Source: a virus (lineage: Duplodnaviria; Heunggongvirae; Uroviricota; Caudoviricetes). From it: 64,000 bases of DNA. This document shows positions 22,011-39,820 of this stretch, in pieces. The position numbers and the translations under genes were made by a program. Below the pieces are notes generated by a model. The model was given only the letters and a program-made list of their open reading frames with translations, made no database searches and was not told where the DNA came from. Every line of letters starts with the position of its first letter. Within the stretch, counting starts at the first letter, position 1. The stretch is taken from IMG/VR virus record IMGVR_UViG_3300008114_001632; one strand, 5' to 3'.

Positions 22011-22454
22011 TTACTTTGGTGCAGTACCTTTAAATTTTCCAGCAGCGATTCCTGACAGGGTATCGCCTTTAACAACGGTATACGGCTCTGTCTTACCTGG
22101 TAATTTAATTGTCTGACCAACTCTAATAAGATTAGGATTTTTAATATTGTTGGCCTTAGCTAAAGCTGTAATTGCTCTTGAAAACTGTGCTGATGGATCT
22201 CTACCACCTCTAGTATTTGTTCCACTACCTGCGGCCGGATCGTTAGTGGCTGTACCAACTGATCCTACATAACTACTCCCGCCAGCGCGATCGAGGCCGC
22301 CACTAGTTGTAGTTGATCCGTCCGGTTTTACAGGGGTTACTTGTGCACCGCCACTAGTTGTAGTTGATCCGTCCGGTTTTACAGGGGTTACTTGTGCACC
22401 GCCACTAGTTGTAGTTGATCCGTCCGGTTTTACAGGGGTTACTTGTGCACCCAC
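22011..22454 (-). CDS. C-terminal part of a frameshifted protein: 17-aa repeats + permuted LysM
   Basis: LAKANNIKNPNLIRVGQTIKLP followed by YTVVKGDTLSGIA; continues 22405..23577 if 2 nt are restored. Confidence 0.7.
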   Translation of the reverse strand: MGAQVTPVKPDGSTTTSGGAQVTPVKPDGSTTTSGGAQVTPVKPDGSTTTSGGLDRAGGSSYVGSVGTATNDPAAGSGTNTRGGRDPSAQFSRAITALAKANNIKNPNLIRVGQTIKLPGKTEPYTVVKGDTLSGIAAGKFKGTAPK

Positions 22455-22482
22455 TAGTTGTAGTTGATCCGTCCGGTTTTAC
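22297..22482. repeat. 51-bp tandem repeat, 3 perfect copies + 1 partial
   Basis: unit ccgccactagttgtagttgatccgtccggttttacaggggttacttgtgca at 22297, 22348, 22399; the copy at 22450 lacks 2 nt. Confidence 0.95.
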
Positions 22483-23577
22483 TAGCGGATTTGTTTTAGC
22501 CCAACCAGCGGCTGGACCTGGATCGCCATACAGCGCACTAGATGGGTGTTTTGGATTTCTCAATGCAGTGTTTACATTATTATCTCGTAACTCTATAGCT
22601 TTCTTTCTAGTAATAAATCCAGATTTATAAATTATAACAGCATCTTCTATATTTGCATATCTTGCAGATTTATAATTTCCTGATTGGTCTTTATCAACAT
22701 ATACATAGCTGTCGCCATTTGGCATTGAATACAATCCAGGAAGATCTAATCGCTCTGCAACTCTTCCTAAGAATTGTCTTTTAATATAGTCTGGACTCAT
22801 TGCGAATCTTTTAAATCCGCGGCTAAAGCCTTGAAGGAAACTGTCGTCGTCTCGTGACTGTAAGAAATCGCGTATTCCTTTTACTGTGTCGTTCATGTCT
22901 TGTTCAACTTCTTCAATAGTTGTAGGAACACCACGCTTTGCTATTACACGATCAATATAGTCATTAACTTCGTTAGACTCAACCAGTCTGCTTTCGCCTA
23001 CGTGTTCGGGCTTGCCTTTGTGCTTTGTACTTGCATAGTCTTTAGCAGCTGATTTGCTCATGCCTTTAGCAGCCTTGGCTACTTCTGGACTTGCAGCTTT
23101 TTCGCCTTTCTTTGTAGCATAGACCATGCCCATAAATTTTTGTTGCGCTTTTGACTTAGCTTTTTCTTCTAGTTGTTGAGCTAGACGTAACTTGTATTCA
23201 TCTTCTTTAACACAATTATCTACAGTCTTGCCGCCTTTTTGCTTAGTACCCATGCGCTTGTAACCGTCCCAGCATGCTTTGCCGTCAACGCCTTTTTGTT
23301 TTTCACTTTCGGCCATTTGAGCGCCAAACTTCATTTCATACTCTAAGTTATGAAAAACTGAACCAATGTAGTCAGCTGCCTTGGTAATTTTGCTCTGCTG
23401 CCATGCTTCTAGGCCCTGTTCTTCAGAACGACCTTTAAGCATTTCGTGCAGTTTGATTGCATACTTGGCAATTTTGTACAGCTCAGAACGAGCCATTTGA
23501 ATTTCGTGATCCATTTCTGCTTGTGCAGCTAAATCACCTAGGCCTTCTTTGACAGATTTTAAATCTTTTTCGCGCAT
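22405..23577 (-). CDS. modular putative internal head protein (N-terminal part)
   Basis: short modules (KACWDGYKRMGTK...DNCVK; EKAKSKAQQKFMG) separated by [LIVM]xE sites; GATAAATA at 23605-23612. Confidence 0.75.
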   Translation of the reverse strand: MREKDLKSVKEGLGDLAAQAEMDHEIQMARSELYKIAKYAIKLHEMLKGRSEEQGLEAWQQSKITKAADYIGSVFHNLEYEMKFGAQMAESEKQKGVDGKACWDGYKRMGTKQKGGKTVDNCVKEDEYKLRLAQQLEEKAKSKAQQKFMGMVYATKKGEKAASPEVAKAAKGMSKSAAKDYASTKHKGKPEHVGESRLVESNEVNDYIDRVIAKRGVPTTIEEVEQDMNDTVKGIRDFLQSRDDDSFLQGFSRGFKRFAMSPDYIKRQFLGRVAERLDLPGLYSMPNGDSYVYVDKDQSGNYKSARYANIEDAVIIYKSGFITRKKAIELRDNNVNTALRNPKHPSSALYGDPGPAAGWAKTNPLVKPDGSTTTSGCTSNPCKTGRINYN

Positions 23578-32217: not shown

Positions 32218-32886
32218 CTATTTATCAATATTACGCTTTGACACTATACGATCAACTCTGCGAATATTGTCCAGCATTAAGTTACATAGCTGGAGAGTAC
32301 GATCGTCTCGGGCATAAAAATACATGCCGTCAACGTACCCATTTTCTATCATTACTTCTTTAAGCACGGGGCCCAGTTTTATTTGCTTGGGATTTTTCTC
32401 AGCCCATAATGCAAAGTTTTCATTTCCACGCTTACGACCAAGGGTAACGCGGAACTGGAATGGTATTTCTTGTTCTACAATGATGGTGTTGGCATTAAGA
32501 ATATTAAGTGCTTCAGGACTTGGTTCCCAAAATTCTTCTAAGTTATATGCGCTTATATCTGCTTTTAGATTAGTTAACCATTTTCGATCGTTGCTGTAAA
32601 TGCATAGATTAGAACTTTCAACTCTAAGCATATAGTCATCAACATTGTTAAGATACTTATGTATCTTTTTTGCATCACGATAATGACTTTCTGTTATTAC
32701 ATCTTGACGTAGTGTTTTAGTAAGCATCAAAGGTCTACCAGCCTTATACTCTATGTCAAGTGAATCTAAGAATGATTTGGCCATTCTTAGATTCTTATTC
32801 CTAAATGCTCCTGCAAGTCGGTTGTTTATGACCAACTTGTAGAAGTATTTATTCCAAAAAAGTTTGTGTGTTTCACACTTTTTCAA
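32218..32886 (-). CDS. hypothetical protein
   Basis: 222-aa ORF directly downstream of clpA. Confidence 0.75.
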   Translation of the reverse strand: MKKCETHKLFWNKYFYKLVINNRLAGAFRNKNLRMAKSFLDSLDIEYKAGRPLMLTKTLRQDVITESHYRDAKKIHKYLNNVDDYMLRVESSNLCIYSNDRKWLTNLKADISAYNLEEFWEPSPEALNILNANTIIVEQEIPFQFRVTLGRKRGNENFALWAEKNPKQIKLGPVLKEVMIENGYVDGMYFYARDDRTLQLCNLMLDNIRRVDRIVSKRNIDK

Positions 32887-35110
32887 CTACTTGCTCCGTG
32901 ACACATTCGAGTACAAACTCGTTGTTTCTGAAGTCGATGTTTACTTTTCCACCATTCTTCAACTCGCCAAACAACAGCTTGCGAGCCAAAGGACGTTTAA
33001 TATCTTTGTCAATCACACGTTGTAGAGGACGAGCACCCATCTTTTTATCAAATCCACGATCTACTAGTGCATCAAGTGATTCGTTTGTGATTGAAATTTC
33101 AACATTTTTATCAGCTACTTGAGCCTTAAGTTCAACTAAGAACTTGCCAACAACCTTCATCATTACTTCTTTAGTCAGTTTACCAAATGTAATAATACCA
33201 TCTAATCGATTGCGGAACTCTGGACTAAAGAATTTCTTAAGCTCTTTGTCTTCGTATTCCTTGTCTTGACTGTCACCGAATCCTATATTATTCTTTTCAG
33301 CATCCTGTGCGCCCAAGTTAGTAGTTAAGATTAATACACAGTTACGTGCATCAGCTTCTTTACCATTTGATCCAGTTATACGACCGTTGTCCATAATCTG
33401 TAATAGGATTGTGGCTACATCAGGATGTGCTTTTTCAATCTCATCCAGCAACAGCACACAGTTAGGGTGTTCTTGTAATTTAGTAATTAGAATACCTGCG
33501 TTTTCTTCAAAGCCTACATAGCCTGGAGGTGAACCAATCAGTTTACTAACGCTGTGCTTTTCCTGATATTCACTCATGTCAAAGCGTACTAATTTTACAC
33601 CAAGCTGTCCAGCAAGTTGTTTAGCAGTTTCTGTTTTACCTGTACCAGTTGGACCCATGAATACAAAGCTACCAATTGGTTTGTTTTCTGGTTTTAGTCC
33701 AGCTTGTGCAACAAGAATCTTATCAACAATATTTTCAATCGCGTTATCTTGGCCGTATACTTCTGCTTTTAAATTCTTTTCTAGATTTTCTAGATTAGAA
33801 GTTTCTTTCTCCATAACCTGTTCTGGAGGAAGATTTACTACCTTAGCAAGTTCAAACTGTACTTCTTGTTCGCCTACGATTTTTTCTTTGACATCTTTTA
33901 GATTAAATCTAGAACACGCAAGATCGATCAAGTCAATAGCCTTATCTGGTAACTTCTTATCTGCTTGATACTTGACACTGAGCTTAACAGCAACTTCAAT
34001 CGCTTCGTCTGTGATAGTTACTTTGTGATGATCTTCGTAGTACTTCTTAATACCACGTAAGATGTCTTTGGTTACTTCTGGAGTAGGCTCGTCAACAGTA
34101 ACACGTTGGAATCTGCGCATCAACGCACGATCCTTTTCAAAGTACTTGCGATATTCTTCCCAAGTAGTACTTGCTACAACTTTGATGTTACCTTTGCTCA
34201 GTGCAGGCTTTAACATATTAGCAAGGTCATTAGCACTGTTGCCGCCACCTGCACCTGCACCGTTCATCATGTGAGCTTCGTCGATAAACATAATAGTTTT
34301 ACCTTTGCTCTTTAATCCTGACAGTACAAGTTTAAAACGTTCTTCAAAGTCACCGCGATACTTAGAACCTGCAAGCATACTACCAATGTCCAGCATGTAC
34401 ACAGAGTAATCTTTTAAAAACGCTGGCACAGTACCTTCAACGATATTGTATGCAAGACCTTCTGCAATAGCAGTCTTACCAACACCGGGCTCACCAACTA
34501 ACAGTACGTTGTTCTTACTGCGTCTACCCAAAGCAAGAGCAATACTTTCAAGTTCGTCTGCACGACCAATCAATGGATCAATGCGTTTCTTTTTAACTTC
34601 GTCGTTAAGGTTAGTCGTAAATTGTCTCAGTGCCTTTTGAGCAACACCTGACACTTCTTCATCTTGTGTTTCAACTTCTAATTCATTGTTGATATAATCA
34701 GCAAACTTTTCTTTTTCAATACCTGCTTTTTCTGCATAGTATGCGGCATGACTTTTCTTTTCAGACAGTATACTAAGCAATACATCGCTCAGTTGAATCT
34801 CAGATCGTCCAGCAAACAATACTTGTGTAAATGCTCTATTCAAACAGCGTTCAACTGACTGTGTTTTCTTTGGCTTATACTTTTCTGCTTCTGTTTTAAT
34901 TTCTTCTAGATTATTTTTAAGATAATATTCTAGATTAGTTTTGATATAATCAACATCAGCACTAGCACCTTTTACTAGATTGTAAAAGTTTTCAGAGCAC
35001 AACATTGCAAAAAGCAGATGCTCAAGGGTAACATATTCGTGCTTGAGTGCCTTAGCATCTTTAACAGCTTTATCAAAGACAAGTTGTAGTTCTTCTGATG
35101 GTTCAACCAT
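32873..35110 (-). CDS. clpA: ATP-dependent Clp protease ATP-binding subunit ClpA
   Basis: Clp N-domain (HEYVTLEHLL), Walker A GEPGVGKT and GPTGTGKT, GSKYRGDFEER, GSPPGYVG, IGF loop. Confidence 0.93.
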   Translation of the reverse strand: MVEPSEELQLVFDKAVKDAKALKHEYVTLEHLLFAMLCSENFYNLVKGASADVDYIKTNLEYYLKNNLEEIKTEAEKYKPKKTQSVERCLNRAFTQVLFAGRSEIQLSDVLLSILSEKKSHAAYYAEKAGIEKEKFADYINNELEVETQDEEVSGVAQKALRQFTTNLNDEVKKKRIDPLIGRADELESIALALGRRSKNNVLLVGEPGVGKTAIAEGLAYNIVEGTVPAFLKDYSVYMLDIGSMLAGSKYRGDFEERFKLVLSGLKSKGKTIMFIDEAHMMNGAGAGGGNSANDLANMLKPALSKGNIKVVASTTWEEYRKYFEKDRALMRRFQRVTVDEPTPEVTKDILRGIKKYYEDHHKVTITDEAIEVAVKLSVKYQADKKLPDKAIDLIDLACSRFNLKDVKEKIVGEQEVQFELAKVVNLPPEQVMEKETSNLENLEKNLKAEVYGQDNAIENIVDKILVAQAGLKPENKPIGSFVFMGPTGTGKTETAKQLAGQLGVKLVRFDMSEYQEKHSVSKLIGSPPGYVGFEENAGILITKLQEHPNCVLLLDEIEKAHPDVATILLQIMDNGRITGSNGKEADARNCVLILTTNLGAQDAEKNNIGFGDSQDKEYEDKELKKFFSPEFRNRLDGIITFGKLTKEVMMKVVGKFLVELKAQVADKNVEISITNESLDALVDRGFDKKMGARPLQRVIDKDIKRPLARKLLFGELKNGGKVNIDFRNNEFVLECVTEQVVEKV

Positions 35111-35612
35111 GTTGTGCAATCCTTTTTTCTATTTTAATTTGTTTTTTACGTGCTAAATCTAATTTTAGTTTCGATACTCTATCAACGAACTCAATCCCTT
35201 GAAGATGATCATATTCATGTAGGAAGCAACGAGCATCAATATCGTATAGTTCTATTGTACACTCTTTTGCGTCTGTGTCAAGGTACTTGGCCACCAACCC
35301 CCTAGGTCTTTTTACATTCAAGAACAGCAACGGATGACTCAGACATCCTTCTGGACTAGCATCTGTATCTTCTGTTACTCTAAGTATAACAGGATTAATA
35401 ACAGCGAACGGTTCTTTATTTTCTAGCAGATACGGTTTTATAACAAATATTTGAGCATCTAGTGCAACTTGATTAGCACTAAGGCCTATACCGCCTTCGG
35501 CAATCATTAGCTCAATCATTTCTTTTTCTATTTGTTTAGCATCCAGTGTTTCAAAATCAAAAGCAGATACTGCTTTATCTAGCCAAGGATCCGGTGATTT
35601 AACTAATTGCAT
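35103..35612 (-). CDS. def: peptide deformylase
   Basis: [22 protein letters not shown]. Confidence 0.95.
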
Positions 35613-37032: not shown

Positions 37033-37737
37033 TTAACTGTTTCTCAACTTGGCTAATCCAAATAATTCAAATAACTTAAACCACATCCAGCCAATATCAA
37101 ACTCAAACCAACGACGACTTAGTTTAGGGTTAGCAGGATCCAAGTGATGATTATTGTGTAGTTCTTCACCACCAATTAGTATGCCCCAAGGCCCAACATT
37201 ACGACTATGGTCTTTGGTTTCACCGTTACGATATCCCCACCAGTGACCAATGCCATTAATAAATCCTGCGGCCCAGAATGGAATCCAGATCATCTGTACG
37301 CCCCATACTAGAAAACCCCATAGCCCAAATAATAACAAGTCTATGACTAACATTAAGAGAATGCCATGGCGGTGATATCTAGTATAGAAAACTTCAATAC
37401 GATCTTTCGGAGTACCTGCACCATACTTAATAACCATTTGTGGATCTTTAGTAGCTTCGTGATATAAACTCCATCCACCTAGTAGTAATCGTTTAATACC
37501 AAAGATGTGAGGACTGTGTGGATCGCCTTCTACATCAGTTGATTGATGATGCTTGCGATGCACTGCTACCCATGCTTTAGTAGTCATTCCTGTGGTCATC
37601 CATAACCAAAATCTCATAAAATGACTTAGAATTGGATGAAACTCAATTCCTCTATGTGCCTGACTTCTATGCAAATACAGCGTAACACACACTATAGTAA
37701 TGTGCGTCATTATTAGGATTGCTAAGATAATTTCCAA
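37033..37737 (-). CDS. membrane fatty-acid (acyl-lipid/acyl-CoA delta-9-type) desaturase
   Basis: His boxes HRSQAH, HRKHH, HNNHH; start re-assigned to TTG 37737 after GGAG. Confidence 0.9.
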   Translation of the reverse strand: MEIILAILIMTHITIVCVTLYLHRSQAHRGIEFHPILSHFMRFWLWMTTGMTTKAWVAVHRKHHQSTDVEGDPHSPHIFGIKRLLLGGWSLYHEATKDPQMVIKYGAGTPKDRIEVFYTRYHRHGILLMLVIDLLLFGLWGFLVWGVQMIWIPFWAAGFINGIGHWWGYRNGETKDHSRNVGPWGILIGGEELHNNHHLDPANPKLSRRWFEFDIGWMWFKLFELFGLAKLRNS

Positions 37738-37784
37738 AATATTCTCCAAAAGATGTTGTGTCTGTGTAATAGTATATTTACCTG

Positions 37785-37813
37785 TTGACAGGTGAGCAAG
37801 AATATTGTATAAT
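37785..37813 (+). promoter_or_regulatory. consensus sigma70 promoter (leaderless), back-to-back with a minus-strand GTAAATA
   Basis: TTGACA-N17-TATAAT, 6 nt before ATG 37820; tattta at 37775-37780. Confidence 0.8.
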
Positions 37814-37819
37814 AGCATT

Positions 37820-38401
37820 ATGAAACGTAAACTTATACTCACAGACGCAGACGGAGTTCTACTAGATTGGGAATGGGCATTCTCAGTTTGGATGCAAGAA
37901 CGAGGTTATACACTAACAGCGGATAATAAGAAAAGCTATTATCTGCATCATCACTACAATGAATTAGAAGAAAAAGATGCTAAGAAAGTTGTTAAGACTT
38001 TTAATGAATCTGCAGCCATTGGCTTTCTTCCTGCACTTCGTGACAGTGCTTTCTATGTTAAACGACTGCACGAAGAACACGGATATCAATTCCGTGTTAT
38101 TACAAGTTTGAGTCTAGATAAAAATGCACAGAAACTGCGTGAAATGAATTTACGCAAGATCTTTGGCAATGCTATTGAATCAGTTATTTGCTTAGACACA
38201 GGCGCAGATAAAGACAGTGCATTGGCTCCGTACAAGGATAGTGGTATGTGGTGGATTGAAGACAAGCCGCAAAACGCAGATGTTGGACATGCGTTGGGAT
38301 TAAAAAGTATTCTTATTGAGCATGGACATAACATGCACCACGTTTGTGAATATAATATTGTTAAAAATTGGAAAGAGATTTACGAACTTGTTTTAGCTTA
38401 A
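37820..38401 (+). CDS. HAD-superfamily 5'(3')-deoxyribonucleotidase-like protein
   Basis: LTDADGVLLDW motif I, VITS motif II, K, WIEDK motif IV. Confidence 0.8.
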   Translation: MKRKLILTDADGVLLDWEWAFSVWMQERGYTLTADNKKSYYLHHHYNELEEKDAKKVVKTFNESAAIGFLPALRDSAFYVKRLHEEHGYQFRVITSLSLDKNAQKLREMNLRKIFGNAIESVICLDTGADKDSALAPYKDSGMWWIEDKPQNADVGHALGLKSILIEHGHNMHHVCEYNIVKNWKEIYELVLA

Positions 38402-39022
38402 TAGTCTATTAACAAAATTTAATAATAATTGGTGATGTCGATTCTCGTGCCAGTGAGGCTGTAGATATTTTTTGTCGTACCACCACTGTTCACTTTCTGG
38501 ATGGCATCCTATTACACCAATGCGTCCTTGTATAATAGCCATAGGATCACCGTTGCTATAGGTAGCCACAACATCCATATTATTACCAACAAATGCACAG
38601 CCGTCATAGAAATACATCCTTTCGTTAACACCTAACCAATTCACTGGCATAGCTTTAGGATGGGGGCGTCTTGTGTCAGTGTTAGGTTGTTTGATGTACT
38701 GTACTGCTCTAACACCATCTAAGACATTAAGGTAGTCTCGATCTGCCCAGTATGCTCCCATGCATATTCCAAGAAATTTGCCTCCACTCTTTACAAAGTT
38801 TCTAACAGCGTCACAGTTCCATTTCATTAGAGTATCATATCTATCGCTGTCACCGTAGCCTCCGGGAAAACATACGCAGTCTACATCATCAAAGAAGGTA
38901 GGTTCAACTTCGTCTCTAGAAAATAATTTAAAACTGTAGTGGGATGAAAGAGCTTTGATGATGCCGTTAGCAGAGTCCACGGCACAGATGGGTTGATGCA
39001 AAAATAATGCTATCTTTTTCAA
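38393..39022 (-). CDS. class I glutamine amidotransferase-like protein (BPL_N-type)
   Basis: FPGG oxyanion strand, LGICMGAY nucleophile elbow, HPE; TTG start. Confidence 0.8.
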   Translation of the reverse strand: MKKIALFLHQPICAVDSANGIIKALSSHYSFKLFSRDEVEPTFFDDVDCVCFPGGYGDSDRYDTLMKWNCDAVRNFVKSGGKFLGICMGAYWADRDYLNVLDGVRAVQYIKQPNTDTRRPHPKAMPVNWLGVNERMYFYDGCAFVGNNMDVVATYSNGDPMAIIQGRIGVIGCHPESEQWWYDKKYLQPHWHENRHHQLLLNFVNRLLS

Positions 39023-39034
39023 CTTTAATCTTTA

Positions 39035-39130
39035 TAAAGCTCACTTTCGAAGTCTACGGTAGCGAATCGCTTTCTCCGCGCCAGCAGCCGGCGCACACTT
39101 TCGGTAACTTAATACCGGTCCTAAGGTGTG
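39035..39130 (-). ncRNA. candidate structured RNA (unidentified)
   Basis: about 54% GC intergenic island with nested stems CACAC/GTGTG, CGGTA/TACCG, GCGCC/GGCGC, AGCG/CGCT. Confidence 0.55.
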
Positions 39131-39577
39131 TTAGTTACACCAACTTTGTTTAGCATCGCCGTAATACTCTCTAGCTAAACCGTTGGCAATTAATCCTTGT
39201 CGAATACTTTGTCCATTTACCAAGATGTCTCCCAATATACGGCCACCAAACTTATCCCATCCATAGATAATAACCTGGTGCTTTGGGTGGGATTGTATGG
39301 CTTGAGTTGTAAATTTACTCGCCAGTTGCGCTCGCTGGTCTTCTTGTGGACATTGAGCTCTGTGTCCTTTTTCTGGGGTGTCAACGCCGTAGATTCTAAC
39401 AGCAAGTTCAGGTTTGAGCGGGGCTGGTAGAAAGGGGGCGGCGATTACAATAGTATCGCCATCACTCACTCTAATAATTTGTGCATCATATGTTGCTGAC
39501 TTAGTAGGCATTTTGCCTTGTGCAAAAGCCGGAACAGATAATACTGTTGCTAATAAAAATACAAATAAACTTTTCAT
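39131..39577 (-). CDS. thermonuclease (SNase-like) with signal peptide
   Basis: SDGDT, VRIYGVDTPE, DKFGGRILG; hydrophobic N-terminus. Confidence 0.9.
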   Translation of the reverse strand: MKSLFVFLLATVLSVPAFAQGKMPTKSATYDAQIIRVSDGDTIVIAAPFLPAPLKPELAVRIYGVDTPEKGHRAQCPQEDQRAQLASKFTTQAIQSHPKHQVIIYGWDKFGGRILGDILVNGQSIRQGLIANGLAREYYGDAKQSWCN

Positions 39578-39589
39578 AATTTTCCTTTG

Positions 39590-39820
39590 TTAAACAACTT
39601 GAAGTAGACCATACACACCTGTAACCAGCATGGCTTTTACAGCCATATCGTCTGCTTCATTGTCTAGTATATCTGTTCTGACTAAGTCTTGTAGTAATTC
39701 TTTATATTCATCAGGACTAATTTGTCCAGCGGAATACGCTTCTGATAGTTGCAATGCCATTTGAGCTCTTTGTTCTGCCCATGGACGACCACAACCAATT
39801 AGTGCTCTTAGTTCTTGCAT
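39590..39820 (-). CDS. hypothetical protein
   Basis: 76-aa ORF. Confidence 0.7.
   Translation of the reverse strand: MQELRALIGCGRPWAEQRAQMALQLSEAYSAGQISPDEYKELLQDLVRTDILDNEADDMAVKAMLVTGVYGLLQVV

Follow-up and report, generated by a model that had tools for sequence, protein, structure and literature searches.

The question raised by this locus is what occupies the short gap between two genes on the minus strand of the window, that is, of the whole 64,000-nt stretch of viral DNA analyzed here. The initial annotation, made from the letters alone, had described a GC-rich multi-stem element, candidate for a novel non-coding RNA or for a riboswitch of the downstream glutamine amidotransferase (GATase)-like gene. 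The sequence that it quoted is the one present in the window, and its figure of about 54% GC in AT-rich DNA was close, as positions 39035-39130 contain 53% GC (51/96) vs. 38.4% for the whole window. The element lies at 39038-39130 on the minus strand, which corresponds to an RNA of about 95 nt. As had been noted, it starts right at the stop of the nuclease gene (TAA at 39133-39131, element from 39130); the gap to the UUG start, given as about 12 nt, is 16 nt (end of AGUGAGC at 39039, TTG at 39022). The element, its parts and its neighbors are the following, in the direction of the RNA.

39131-39577, minus strand: upstream neighbor, staphylococcal-nuclease-like (SNase-like) ORF (Pfam SNase, E = 1.8e-9).
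39038-39135, minus strand: 98-nt match of the family covariance model, the 5' end of which takes in the stop codon of the upstream gene.
39126-39130, minus strand: 5' strand of helix P1, CACAC, pairing with 39094-39098; compensatory changes in all P1 pairs.
39118-39125, minus strand: junction J1/1a, CUUAGGAC, family motif CCUUAGG, invariant and unpaired.
39102-39117, minus strand: hairpin P1a, CGGUA-UUAAGU-UACCG; 91% of cells paired, compensatory changes in 5/5 pairs.
39094-39098, minus strand: 3' strand of helix P1, GUGUG, supported by covariation.
39079-39093, minus strand: hairpin P2, CGCC-GGCUGCU-GGCG, with an invariant 7-nt loop; stem 98.9% paired, with GC/CG swaps.
39048-39078, minus strand: helix P3 (CGGAG/CUUCG) enclosing P3a (GCG/CGU); P3 81% and P3a 95% paired.
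39059-39067, minus strand: 9-nt loop of P3a, AUUCGCUAC, the type of the window.
39038-39047, minus strand: 3' tail, AAAGUGAGCU, within which AGUGAGC (39039-39045) is invariant.
38393-39022, minus strand: downstream neighbor, class-I glutamine-amidotransferase-like / BPL_N ORF with a TTG start (Pfam BPL_N, 5.3e-9).

The Pfam GATase match of the downstream ORF (6e-4) falls below the cut-off. The SNase-like gene is the upstream neighbor in a minority of the family loci among the matches listed, and is thus not a constant partner. Folded as a single sequence, the element has a minimum free energy (MFE) of -29 kcal/mol (z = -0.51), equaled or bettered by 56 of 200 shuffles, and the structure supported by covariation (-20.7) differs from the MFE structure (-26.4) on the window sequence. 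The fold being so ordinary next to shuffled sequences, the element exceeds chance only through comparison with other copies.

Such copies are numerous. In a first set of loci, fetched only through neighboring proteins, iterated nhmmer searches detected the element in 59 of 160 cases, and four motif scans of IMG/VR then returned at least 120 loci each, nhmmer confirming 119 of the 120 listed by the first of these scans. The family amounts to at least 198 distinct sequences from at least 259 loci of IMG/VR; a further, divergent copy lies in Pseudomonas phage PA5oct (MK797984, 115468-115561) and is also present in the cultured relatives of this phage (Paride, Callisto, MIJ3, and others). Members measure 73-109 nt from CCUUAGG to the tail, and their hosts are large T4-like and jumbo phages from freshwater (lake-water) metagenomes. 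The covariance model R1 finds the element by cmsearch with 99.1 bits (E = 1.2e-25), its sole match within the 64-kb window. Matches to R1 occurred exactly once in each of 100 sources; likewise, five phage genomes of 300-355 kb had one full-length copy each, with a truncated paralogue (L374) besides in one of them. A second R1 match in one genome (G007), at 18.6 bits, looks like noise.

A pattern scan of 596 Gb of bacterial genome contigs gave 11 matches, two of which (L288 and L291) were confirmed by nhmmer. By our own arithmetic, a pattern with 22 fixed bases should match about 65 times by chance in so much DNA; the family is therefore essentially absent from bacterial genomes. The two confirmed contigs belong to Bacteroidota MAGs to which family phages are linked, and PA5oct infects Pseudomonas, so a partner conserved across phyla is called for.

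No Rfam 15 model matched anywhere in the window at the gathering score; between 38900 and 39300, three matches only appeared at E ≤ 10, all far under their cut-offs, and 14 other members (types A, B, and C) together with the PA5oct copy gave none at E ≤ 0.1. ARAGORN detected no tRNA or tmRNA gene in the window, in agreement with the initial exclusion of a tRNA. Searches of cultured phages with the locus, by megablast and tblastn, returned no match, and a "distant" blastn search with the element returned chance matches only (E = 4). Our literature search found no description of such an RNA, and the PA5oct paper gives four ncRNAs, none at the family locus. As judged from sequence, the element is therefore one member of a large RNA family outside all Rfam 15 models.

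The fold was established by comparison. RNAalifold, applied to a plain MAFFT alignment of all types, recovered P2 alone because the variable helices were misaligned, and a covariance model was therefore built from a hand-drawn structure on type-B sequences. From 5' to 3', covariation supports P1 enclosing the P1a hairpin, the P2 hairpin, P3 enclosing the P3a hairpin, and a single-stranded tail. In the model alignment A3 (100 sequences), 89.1% of the paired cells can pair, vs. 61.4% after shuffling and 30-42% with the partners slid. Compensatory changes, with both sides altered, were seen in 20 of 21 pairs of this alignment and define five covarying helices; those of P3 and P3a show them in every pair. 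Of the stems drawn initially, CACAC/GUGUG, CGGUA/UACCG, and CGCC-GGCUGCU-GGCG are retained as P1, P1a, and P2, whereas AGCG-AUU-CGCU and ACU-UCGAA-AGU find no such support and are both replaced by P3/P3a. Indeed, among the type-B members in the matches listed, all four pairs of AGCG-AUU-CGCU can form in only 19 of 117, vs. 99 of 117 for all three pairs of GCG/CGU around the 9-nt loop AUUCGCUAC. The Rfam comparison and the search for homologues and covariation proposed by the initial annotation thus uphold its candidate novel ncRNA, with no Rfam 15 model, no tRNA, strong covariation, and hundreds of homologues.

While the helices vary, four unpaired segments are almost invariant: J1/1a (CCUUAGGAC), the P2 loop GGCUGCU, the P3a loop, and the tail AGUGAGC. 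Among the matches listed, and counting only members whose search pattern lacked the motif concerned, 148 of 157 retain CCUUAGG, 97 of 101 the P2 loop, and 108 of 108 complete members the tail. The most variable position of the P2 loop, G5, is replaced by U or A in 3 of the 101 (again among the matches listed). The P3a loop differs by type, with unrelated sequences, and the tail stays the same. The suggestion that the unpaired segments matter was therefore well founded, because they are precisely the invariant positions of the family.

The strand of the RNA can be read from the alignment and from the flanking genes. G-U outnumbers A-C by 20:0 in P1a (pairs 2-5), by 21:1 in the two best P3 pairs, and by 15:1 in the first P3a pair, and among the matches listed the ORFs are co-oriented with the RNA in 136 of 141 cases upstream and 113 of 139 downstream; the RNA is thus on the gene strand. 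Terminators, where present, follow the element in the same orientation: an intrinsic terminator was found after it in 6 of 187 members (among the matches listed), 9-28 nt downstream and outside the fold, and also in PA5oct. In most loci of the matches listed, 0-14 nt separate a co-oriented stop codon from the start of the element, and the next ORF begins a median of 19 nt past it. The base after AGUGAGC is usually an A followed by a U-rich run, and conservation ends about 8 nt downstream of the tail. On the upstream side, the family shows no conservation beyond -12 (at most 0.16 bit per position from -12 to -45). At the window locus, no promoter-like site was found on the minus strand and no intrinsic terminator on the minus strand of 38700-39700, which agrees with the initial view that the element is not a terminator; the remark that a U-tract is missing is right for the window and does not extend to the family, given its usual U-rich run. 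Since no conserved promoter of its own is present, the RNA is probably part of the transcript of the upstream gene.

What the invariant segments may recognize was examined by searching them for antisense to real E. coli rRNA (L292). Positions 39116-39127 (ACCUUAGGACCG) are exactly antisense over 12 nt to 23S 1920-1931, positions 39058-39066 (UUCGCUACC) over 9 nt to 23S 1929-1937, which abuts the J1/1a target, and positions 39080-39090 (CGGCUGCUGGC, the P2 loop with its closing pair) over 11 nt to 16S 517-527. J1/1a and the P3a loop thus jointly span 23S 1920-1937, which we take to be the 3' side of H69 plus the adjoining downstream stretch, at the subunit interface; 16S 517-527 is the 530 loop. 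In the mature ribosome, most of this 23S target is already engaged in base pairs, which speaks against docking. Out of 5000 dinucleotide shuffles, the observed antisense count was matched by 1 for 8-mers, 4 for 9-mers, 14 for 10-mers, 22 for 11-mers, and 61 for 12-mers, and in sense orientation the window element matches E. coli rRNA nowhere over 9 nt or more. Across 189 members (among the matches listed), the median is 8 antisense 9-mer matches vs. 1 sense match, an enrichment partly built in because most members were collected with patterns made from the very motifs in question. The antisense matches of the family cluster at 16S 517-528 and 23S 1917-1937. A Sphingomonadaceae genome, a Cytophagales genome, and Haliscomenobacter 16S carry the same target sites unchanged.

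The other P3a loops were compared with rRNA in the same way. The type C loop ACGCCAUUC is perfectly antisense to 23S 1968-1976 and the subtype A2 loop GUAGGAGUC to 16S 337-345, and another type C loop, UUACGCCA, is exactly complementary to 23S 1971-1978, or over 9 nt if one G-U is counted. The main type-A loop AGUCGUGCC (53 members, among the matches listed) and the rare loop GGCCGGGAAUCC gave no clean antisense match, even with G-U pairs allowed and Cytophagales rRNA included as a target. The PA5oct copy keeps both 23S-antisense segments but not the 16S-antisense P2 loop. The variable G5 of the P2 loop falls in the middle of the proposed duplex with 16S. These three observations count against docking on rRNA. 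The tail has an 8-nt match to 23S 1098-1105, which we do not count because it is within chance expectation for a 7-8-mer.

Any explanation has to account for what is observed, namely the family with its fold and strand, one copy per genome among variable neighbors, and the complementarity with its statistics. Our tentative preference, held with some reserve, is for an RNA directed at ribosomal RNA. The RNA would probably be transcribed together with the upstream gene, and the conserved GC|AUUUU that follows its tail, where we place the putative transcript end, may be its point of release. The RNA would then dock through its exposed segments on host rRNA, either nascent or in free subunits, and such docking might modulate the assembly or use of ribosomes during infection. 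Docking on host rRNA appears the most likely mechanism since the invariant segments are exactly antisense to universally conserved rRNA. A narrower version, possible although we would lean against it, is that of a dedicated guide-like RNA which would pair with the rRNA of both subunits on the decoding/intersubunit face and take over, stall, or block the assembly of host ribosomes. Its targets would be 23S 1920-1937 and the 16S 530 loop, with 23S 1968-1978 or 16S 337-345 for the alternative loops. The spread of the family, its single copy, the turnover of its neighbors, and motifs 94-100% invariant in phages of different bacterial phyla mark, as we read them, strong selection for a host-independent function.

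To our knowledge, very few structured RNAs encoded by phages have a known role, and we know of none that addresses rRNA by base pairing. Should the guide-like RNA be real, bacterial viruses would have provided their first known rRNA-antisense RNA. Docking on rRNA, if true, would represent a new mode of phage control over translation, and a natural scaffold displaying antisense loops to conserved sites of the ribosome. The copies in PA5oct and its cultured relatives make the question accessible to direct bench tests. Even with an incidental link to rRNA, the family would still be a new and well-supported addition to Rfam.

The best placed of the alternatives, which we nevertheless judge unlikely, is that the invariant loops serve the tertiary fold of the element itself, the tail pairing with the P2 or P3a loop in a pseudoknot, or bind a protein or ligand of phage or host, the complementarity to rRNA being incidental. 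The GCU of the P2 loop can pair with the AGC of the tail, and one member (L110) combines a C-to-G change in the loop with a G-to-C change in the tail at exactly those positions, whereas another (L365) has the same loop change and no compensating change in the tail. The tail variant AAGCAGC of L136 and PA5oct can pair with 5-6 nt of the P2 loop, which suggests that this loop may serve an internal pseudoknot. Between the P3a loop UUCGCU and the tail AGUGAG, 6 pairs are possible, 2 of them G-U; however, that loop switches among unrelated sequences against a tail invariant throughout. A subtype (L253, L176, and L402) carries an internal CCUAAGG able to pair with CCUUAGG, and the A-to-G change of the motif in L402 still permits a G-U pair with it. 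The type-A P3a loop without a rRNA match also fits internal pairing, while other loop types add further perfect rRNA matches, and a chance origin is unlikely for antisense segments of 12, 11, and 9 nt, two of which abut on one rRNA site. Internal pairing and pairing in trans are compatible with each other. The candidate pseudoknots were weighed on motifs that hardly vary.

Compared with an RNA directed at rRNA in trans, a cis-acting intercistronic element, which would tether post-termination subunits through rRNA for reinitiation on the next ORF, in the manner of the calicivirus TURBS with 18S rRNA, or pause termination, seems improbable to us. The position of the element, shortly after a co-oriented stop and shortly before the next ORF, would suit such a role, as would the complementarity to rRNA and the neighbors of any kind, expected for a translational device independent of the genes. 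Compact phage genomes normally pack their genes tightly. If the element coupled cistrons in general, many junctions would be expected to carry it, yet there is one copy per 300-kb genome; moreover, its distances from the stop and from the next start codon vary, 26 of 139 loci have an oppositely oriented ORF as nearest downstream neighbor, and the few terminators described above follow the element (both counts among the matches listed).

We also consider it quite improbable that the family is a new class of self-cleaving ribozyme or another RNA-processing element separating cistrons. Many invariant nucleotides in junctions and loops, together with helices that covary freely, are typical of small ribozymes, and an intergenic place in phage operons without a constant neighbor would agree with it, but no Rfam ribozyme matched (hammerhead, twister, twister-sister, pistol, hatchet, HDV-like, hairpin, and others), the element is single-copy, no cleavage site can be inferred, and the complementarity to rRNA would be a coincidence.

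The riboswitch, or any other cis-regulator of the GATase-like gene, was the role first put forward, and we now regard it as very improbable. The window and 24 of 139 unique loci do have the element 15-25 nt upstream of such a gene, a share that is inflated because loci were fetched through neighboring proteins. In an unbiased sample (loci L161-L280, not fetched in this way), the nearest downstream ORF is GATase-like in 6 of 106, and falls in 51 clusters in all among the matches listed, so that the constant downstream gene expected of a gene-specific regulator is not found. Fatty-acid desaturase, ferritin, metallophosphatase, radical SAM, TerC, and unknown proteins are met as neighbors, with no shared functional theme, and the commonest ones received no function from PHROGs or Pfam. 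Neither an expression platform overlapping the aptamer, whether terminator/antiterminator or start-site sequestering, nor an Rfam riboswitch match is present, and conservation stops about 8 nt past the tail. Regulation specific to the GATase-like gene is thus refuted by the neighbor census.

Lastly, the opposite strand might be the functional one, as an rRNA mimic or decoy carrying sense copies of H69, the adjoining 23S, and the 16S 530 loop, given that hairpins fold on both strands and that the 5' domain, read on the plus strand, looks much like the H69 hairpin plus GUCCUAAGGUAG, but G-U pairs in well-supported helices would turn into A-C mismatches and nearly all flanking genes and terminators are in minus-sense orientation, so this is scarcely credible.

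Among known systems, the C/D box and H/ACA sRNAs/snoRNAs of archaea and eukaryotes come close in possible working. They present conserved single-stranded antisense of 9-14 nt to central rRNA sites, and like the element they are short and often have two rRNA targets per RNA. The element has the antisense of at least 9 nt to rRNA that characterizes these guides, a resemblance in possible working and not in membership: direct reading of the 98-nt element found no C/D (RUGAUGA/CUGA) or H/ACA (ANA, ACA) box at the required positions, the fold is another one without kink-turn or known partner enzyme, and its two 23S-antisense segments stand in permuted order relative to a continuous antisense. We know of no C/D or H/ACA guide in bacteria or their phages. 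The calicivirus TURBS is also a viral RNA at a stop/start junction with complementarity to rRNA; however, it lies upstream of the stop, is eukaryotic, and addresses 18S h26, whereas the element comes after the stop, in single copy, and is antisense to 23S too.

Closer to the phages concerned, the PeSL cassettes of T4-type phages are, like the element, conserved and non-coding, between variable genes in plastic genome regions. They occur in many copies per genome with an early promoter, unlike the element, which has a single copy and no conserved promoter; identity with PeSL was rejected on the one copy of the 64-kb window and the one full-length copy of each of the five 300-355 kb genomes. A survey of IMG/VR predicted 8,495 unnamed "DNAVirus_X" candidate structured RNA motifs (Fremin et al., 2023), and the main text of that paper (PMC10690425) mentions no rRNA-complementary motif. 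The present family may be one of these candidates.

The T4 RNAs rnaC and rnaD (species 1 and 2 RNAs) are, as is the family, small structured RNAs of a large T4-type phage with no assigned function. They are stable and made from a longer transcript, as the family RNA would be. They sit in a tRNA cluster, rnaC with a tRNA-like arm, whereas the window has no tRNA genes, and CCUUAGG, GGCUGCU, and AGUGAGC are missing from both. No significant homology to them emerged: with filters off, R1 on the T4 locus had its best match elsewhere (9.6 bits), and the rnaD hairpin gave a 20-nt local match of 6.6 bits (E = 1.2). The first hairpin loop of rnaD, GUCGCUAC, is the loop of the truncated paralogue L374, and has one base changed and one fewer compared with AUUCGCUAC.

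The GC-rich element lies in a spacer of a phage genome and belongs to an RNA family that is real, single-copy and uncatalogued. Since its products include a family-B DNA polymerase of T4 type, a Lon-like protease and a 2720-aa tail-fibre protein, the window comes from a large phage; nearly all its ORFs are carried by the minus strand. The locus is organized as follows:

39131-39577, minus strand: SNase-like ORF (Pfam SNase, E 1.8e-9)
39130 down to about 39038, minus strand: the element, between the SNase-like and GATase-like ORFs

The element begins directly after the SNase-like stop codon (TAA, 39133-39131, minus), and a TTG start at 39022, 16 bases past the element, opens a 209-aa ORF with BPL_N / class-I GATase-like matches. 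The G+C content is 53% in 39035-39130, vs 38.4% window-wide. As a single sequence, the element did not fold beyond chance when compared with dinucleotide shuffles (MFE z = -0.51). ARAGORN found no tRNA, and no second copy was found within the 64-kb window. The Rfam search proposed in the initial annotation, run against Rfam 15, gave no match at gathering score over the whole window, and only noise around the element at E<=10.

Iterated nhmmer, seeded with the window sequence alone, detected the element in 59 of 160 IMG/VR loci fetched via homologues of both flanking proteins (34 distinct sequences). Three words were invariant in these 34 sequences: CCUUAGG, GGCUGCUG and AGUGAGC, the last forming the 3' tail. 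The pattern of the three words matched at least 120 further IMG/VR contigs, nhmmer confirming 119/120 among the matches listed, and three more IMG/VR scans, each leaving one motif free, gave at least 120 matches apiece. Among the matches listed, where the search did not impose the motif concerned, the tail was retained in 108/108 cases, the P2 loop in 97/101 and CCUUAGG in 148/157. The three-word pattern gave 11 matches in 185,579 species genomes, only 2 of them real and the others due to chance; the real ones were in contigs of a Lishizhenia MAG (14.5 kb) and a Haliscomenobacter MAG (183 kb). The collected set comprises 198 distinct elements from 259 loci, the scans behind it having given at least 120 matches each. 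The loop of helix P3a was mostly of type B (AUUCGCUAC, n=128), which is the type of the window, followed by type A (AGUCGUGCC, n=53), the commonest among the GATase-like loci fetched, and type C (ACGCCAUU or UUACGCCAG, n=13), with few other types besides.

When RNAalifold was run on a plain MAFFT alignment, P2 was the only helix found. The family covariance model, R1, was built on five helices (P1, P1a, P2, P3, P3a) drawn from 30 window-type sequences, and cmsearch with R1 gave exactly one match in each of 100 sources (39038-39135, minus, 99.1 bits in the window). In the R1 alignment, which is fitted to the model, paired cells amounted to 89.1%, vs 61.4% with shuffled 3' partners and 30-42% with partners slid by 1-3 columns. 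As to the homologues and covariation asked for initially, homologues were found and 20 of the 21 pairs showed changes on both sides, the latter in this same fitted alignment. Helices P1, P1a and P2 of the initial annotation stand. Its hairpins AGCG/CGCU and ACU/AGU fail, the former being formable in just 19/117 type-B members, and a GCG/CGU-type P3a around a 9-nt loop is formable in 99/117. For the window copy, the MFE structure (-26.4 kcal/mol) differs from the supported fold (-20.7).

The family extends to a cultured virus. On the Pseudomonas phage PA5oct, R1 gave one match (MK797984, 115468-115561, +, 31.3 bits, E 1.7e-6), which starts at the EST35_0189 stop codon, with a clear intrinsic terminator after it. 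This copy retains CCUUAGGACCG and GAUUCGCUACC; its P2 loop differs and its tail is AAGCAGC. Identical copies were found in ten more records, namely nine other phages (Paride, Callisto, MIJ3 and others) and the RefSeq entry of PA5oct. Four ncRNAs are annotated in the PA5oct transcriptome, none of them at 115468-115561 (PMC7318152).

In well-defined pairs, G-U largely exceeded A-C (20:0 in P1a, 21:1 in the two best P3 pairs, 15:1 in the first P3a pair), A-C cases being concentrated in ill-defined terminal pairs. The nearest ORFs were co-oriented with the RNA in 136/141 cases upstream and 113/139 downstream, and terminators, where present, stand after the element in gene-strand orientation. Therefore, the RNA is a gene-strand transcript (minus strand of the window).

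The upstream ORF stops only a few bases from P1; taken to the point 9 nt before CCUUAGG, the distance has a median of 2 nt (interquartile range -2 to 11). Downstream, the median distance from the tail to the start of the next ORF is 19 nt, and the tail is usually followed by an A and then by a U-rich run. No position upstream of -12 was conserved in sequence, hence there is no fixed promoter. The initial annotation considered, among other readings, a riboswitch or cis-regulator of the GATase-like gene and proposed to check the constancy of the downstream gene. In the unbiased sample (L161-L280, loci found by pattern only, among the matches listed), the neighbours vary: the nearest ORFs fell into 51 clusters downstream and 45 upstream, and a GATase-like gene was downstream in 6/106. 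Most of the neighbours are unknown, those with an annotation including fatty-acid desaturase, ferritin-like, metallophosphatase, radical-SAM/SPASM and TerC proteins. The nuclease and the GATase-like gene are in many relatives set about 2.1 kb apart by other genes, and the element then adjoins the GATase-like gene or, in other lineages, the nuclease. Also, a canonical terminator was present within 80 nt downstream in only 6/187 members, and one full-length copy was present in each of five phage genomes (300-355 kb, with four of the five at least 92% complete), one of which has in addition a 71-nt paralogue without the 5' domain. Such variable neighbours, rare terminators and single copies rule out a GATase-specific riboswitch or regulator, and the riboswitch reading is hardly credible. 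The context fits a single-copy RNA gene in a plastic genome region. In the window, a fatty-acid-desaturase-like gene lies near the element (37033-37842, minus), and desaturase-like genes (cluster 7) adjoin the RNA again in other phages; a Lon-like ATP-dependent protease (32873-35119, minus) and an HNH endonuclease (619-1902, minus) lie farther away.

Compared with the annotated E. coli rrsH/rrlH genes, the window copy carries three segments of exact antisense:

ACCUUAGGACCG, 12 nt: antisense to 23S 1920-1931
UUCGCUACC, 9 nt: antisense to 23S 1929-1937
CGGCUGCUGGC, 11 nt: antisense to 16S 517-527

The two 23S-antisense segments abut and overlap and jointly cover 23S 1920-1937, and no sense match is longer than 8 nt. 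Among 5000 dinucleotide shuffles, the observed antisense counts were reached by 1 for 8-mers, 4 for 9-mers, 14 for 10-mers, 22 for 11-mers and 61 for 12-mers. Over 189 members, the median number of 9-mer matches was 8 in antisense vs 1 in sense, and the antisense matches pile up at 16S 517-528 and 23S 1917-1937. Over 14 nt, the family consensus CUACCUUAGGACCG is perfectly antisense to 23S 1920-1933 of E. coli and of a Cytophagales genome, and the target sites are identical in the rRNA genes of one Sphingomonadaceae genome and one Cytophagales genome and in a Haliscomenobacter 16S. Perfect antisense was also found for loop types ACGCCAUUC (23S 1968-1976), UUACGCCA (23S 1971-1978) and GUAGGAGUC (16S 337-345). 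No perfect rRNA antisense site was found for the main type-A loop or for one rare loop, and the 7-8-nt match of the tail to 23S 1098-1105 is within chance. The rRNA-matching nucleotides are mostly unpaired in the supported fold (P2 loop, P3a loop and J1/1a, the junction between P1 and P1a).

The reading that best joins these facts, a serious if still tentative one, is that the RNA may address ribosomal RNA, because a single-copy, strongly constrained, gene-strand RNA with irrelevant neighbours and invariant exposed segments spans host phyla and carries non-random antisense focused on particular sites of universally conserved rRNA. Nascent rRNA or free subunits would be the more plausible targets, as most of the 23S site lies in helices once the ribosome is mature; that the RNA gains access to them, and has an effect after reaching rRNA, we infer. 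It is less probable that the loops are there for tertiary contacts within the RNA or to bind a protein: a pseudoknot between the P2 loop and the tail finds some evidence in L110, L136 and PA5oct but is contradicted by L365, and the motifs show too little variation to judge it by. A device acting on post-termination ribosomes in the manner of TURBS appears unlikely, for the position fits but the single copy does not. A new ribozyme is more doubtful still, and an rRNA mimic read from the opposite strand is very improbable.

When compared with Rfam, tRNAs, intrinsic terminators, riboswitch criteria, PeSL, T4 rnaC/rnaD and guide-RNA boxes, the element was a member of none. Its sole likeness to guide RNAs is the rRNA-antisense segments. 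Apart from an 8-nt loop word in common with rnaD, it resembles T4 rnaC/rnaD only as a small phage RNA with no assigned role. The first hairpin of rnaD (L366:1554-1672, -; species 2 RNA) is CCGG-GUCGCUA-CCGG, with the loop word GUCGCUAC, which is the same as in the 71-nt paralogue and close to the family P3a loop; the family model gave no significant match on rnaD (E 1.2). A survey of IMG/VR holds 8,495 unnamed candidate structured RNAs (PMC10690425), and the present family may be among them.

Several variants were also observed. The 71-nt paralogue (L374:97-167, that is IMGVR_UViG_3300023184_000024, 76946-77016, in a 352-kb genome with a full-length copy) retains P2 with a GGCUGCU loop, the AGUGAGC tail and P3/P3a, the P3a loop being GUCGCUAC. 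It is without P1a, and CCUUAGGAC is replaced by ACCUUAAAC. Six members (L382, L394, L396, L400, L404, L406) present CCCUAGG instead of CCUUAGG, with the local hairpin rebuilt as CCC(U)...GGGG and a 10-nt antisense (UAGGACCGUU) to 23S 1918-1927 retained. In a rare subtype (L253, L176, L402), the rRNA-like word CCUAAGG occurs internally as an addition and is able to pair in cis with CCUUAGG; in L402 the motif is CCUUGGG and this pairing is kept via G-U. To explain the rRNA resemblance mostly by internal pairing suits this subtype alone, and is at odds with the unpaired loops in the main types. Elsewhere in the window, a 51-nt unit is repeated four times in tandem at 22297-22500 (three identical), within minus-strand ORFs 22011-22454 and 22405-23577, where it probably encodes a module of 17 residues that recurs in the protein. 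A consensus scan also picked out a plus-strand terminator-like hairpin (39125-39141) that overlaps the nuclease stop codon and the 5' strand of P1; the CACAC-rich sequence probably produces it incidentally.
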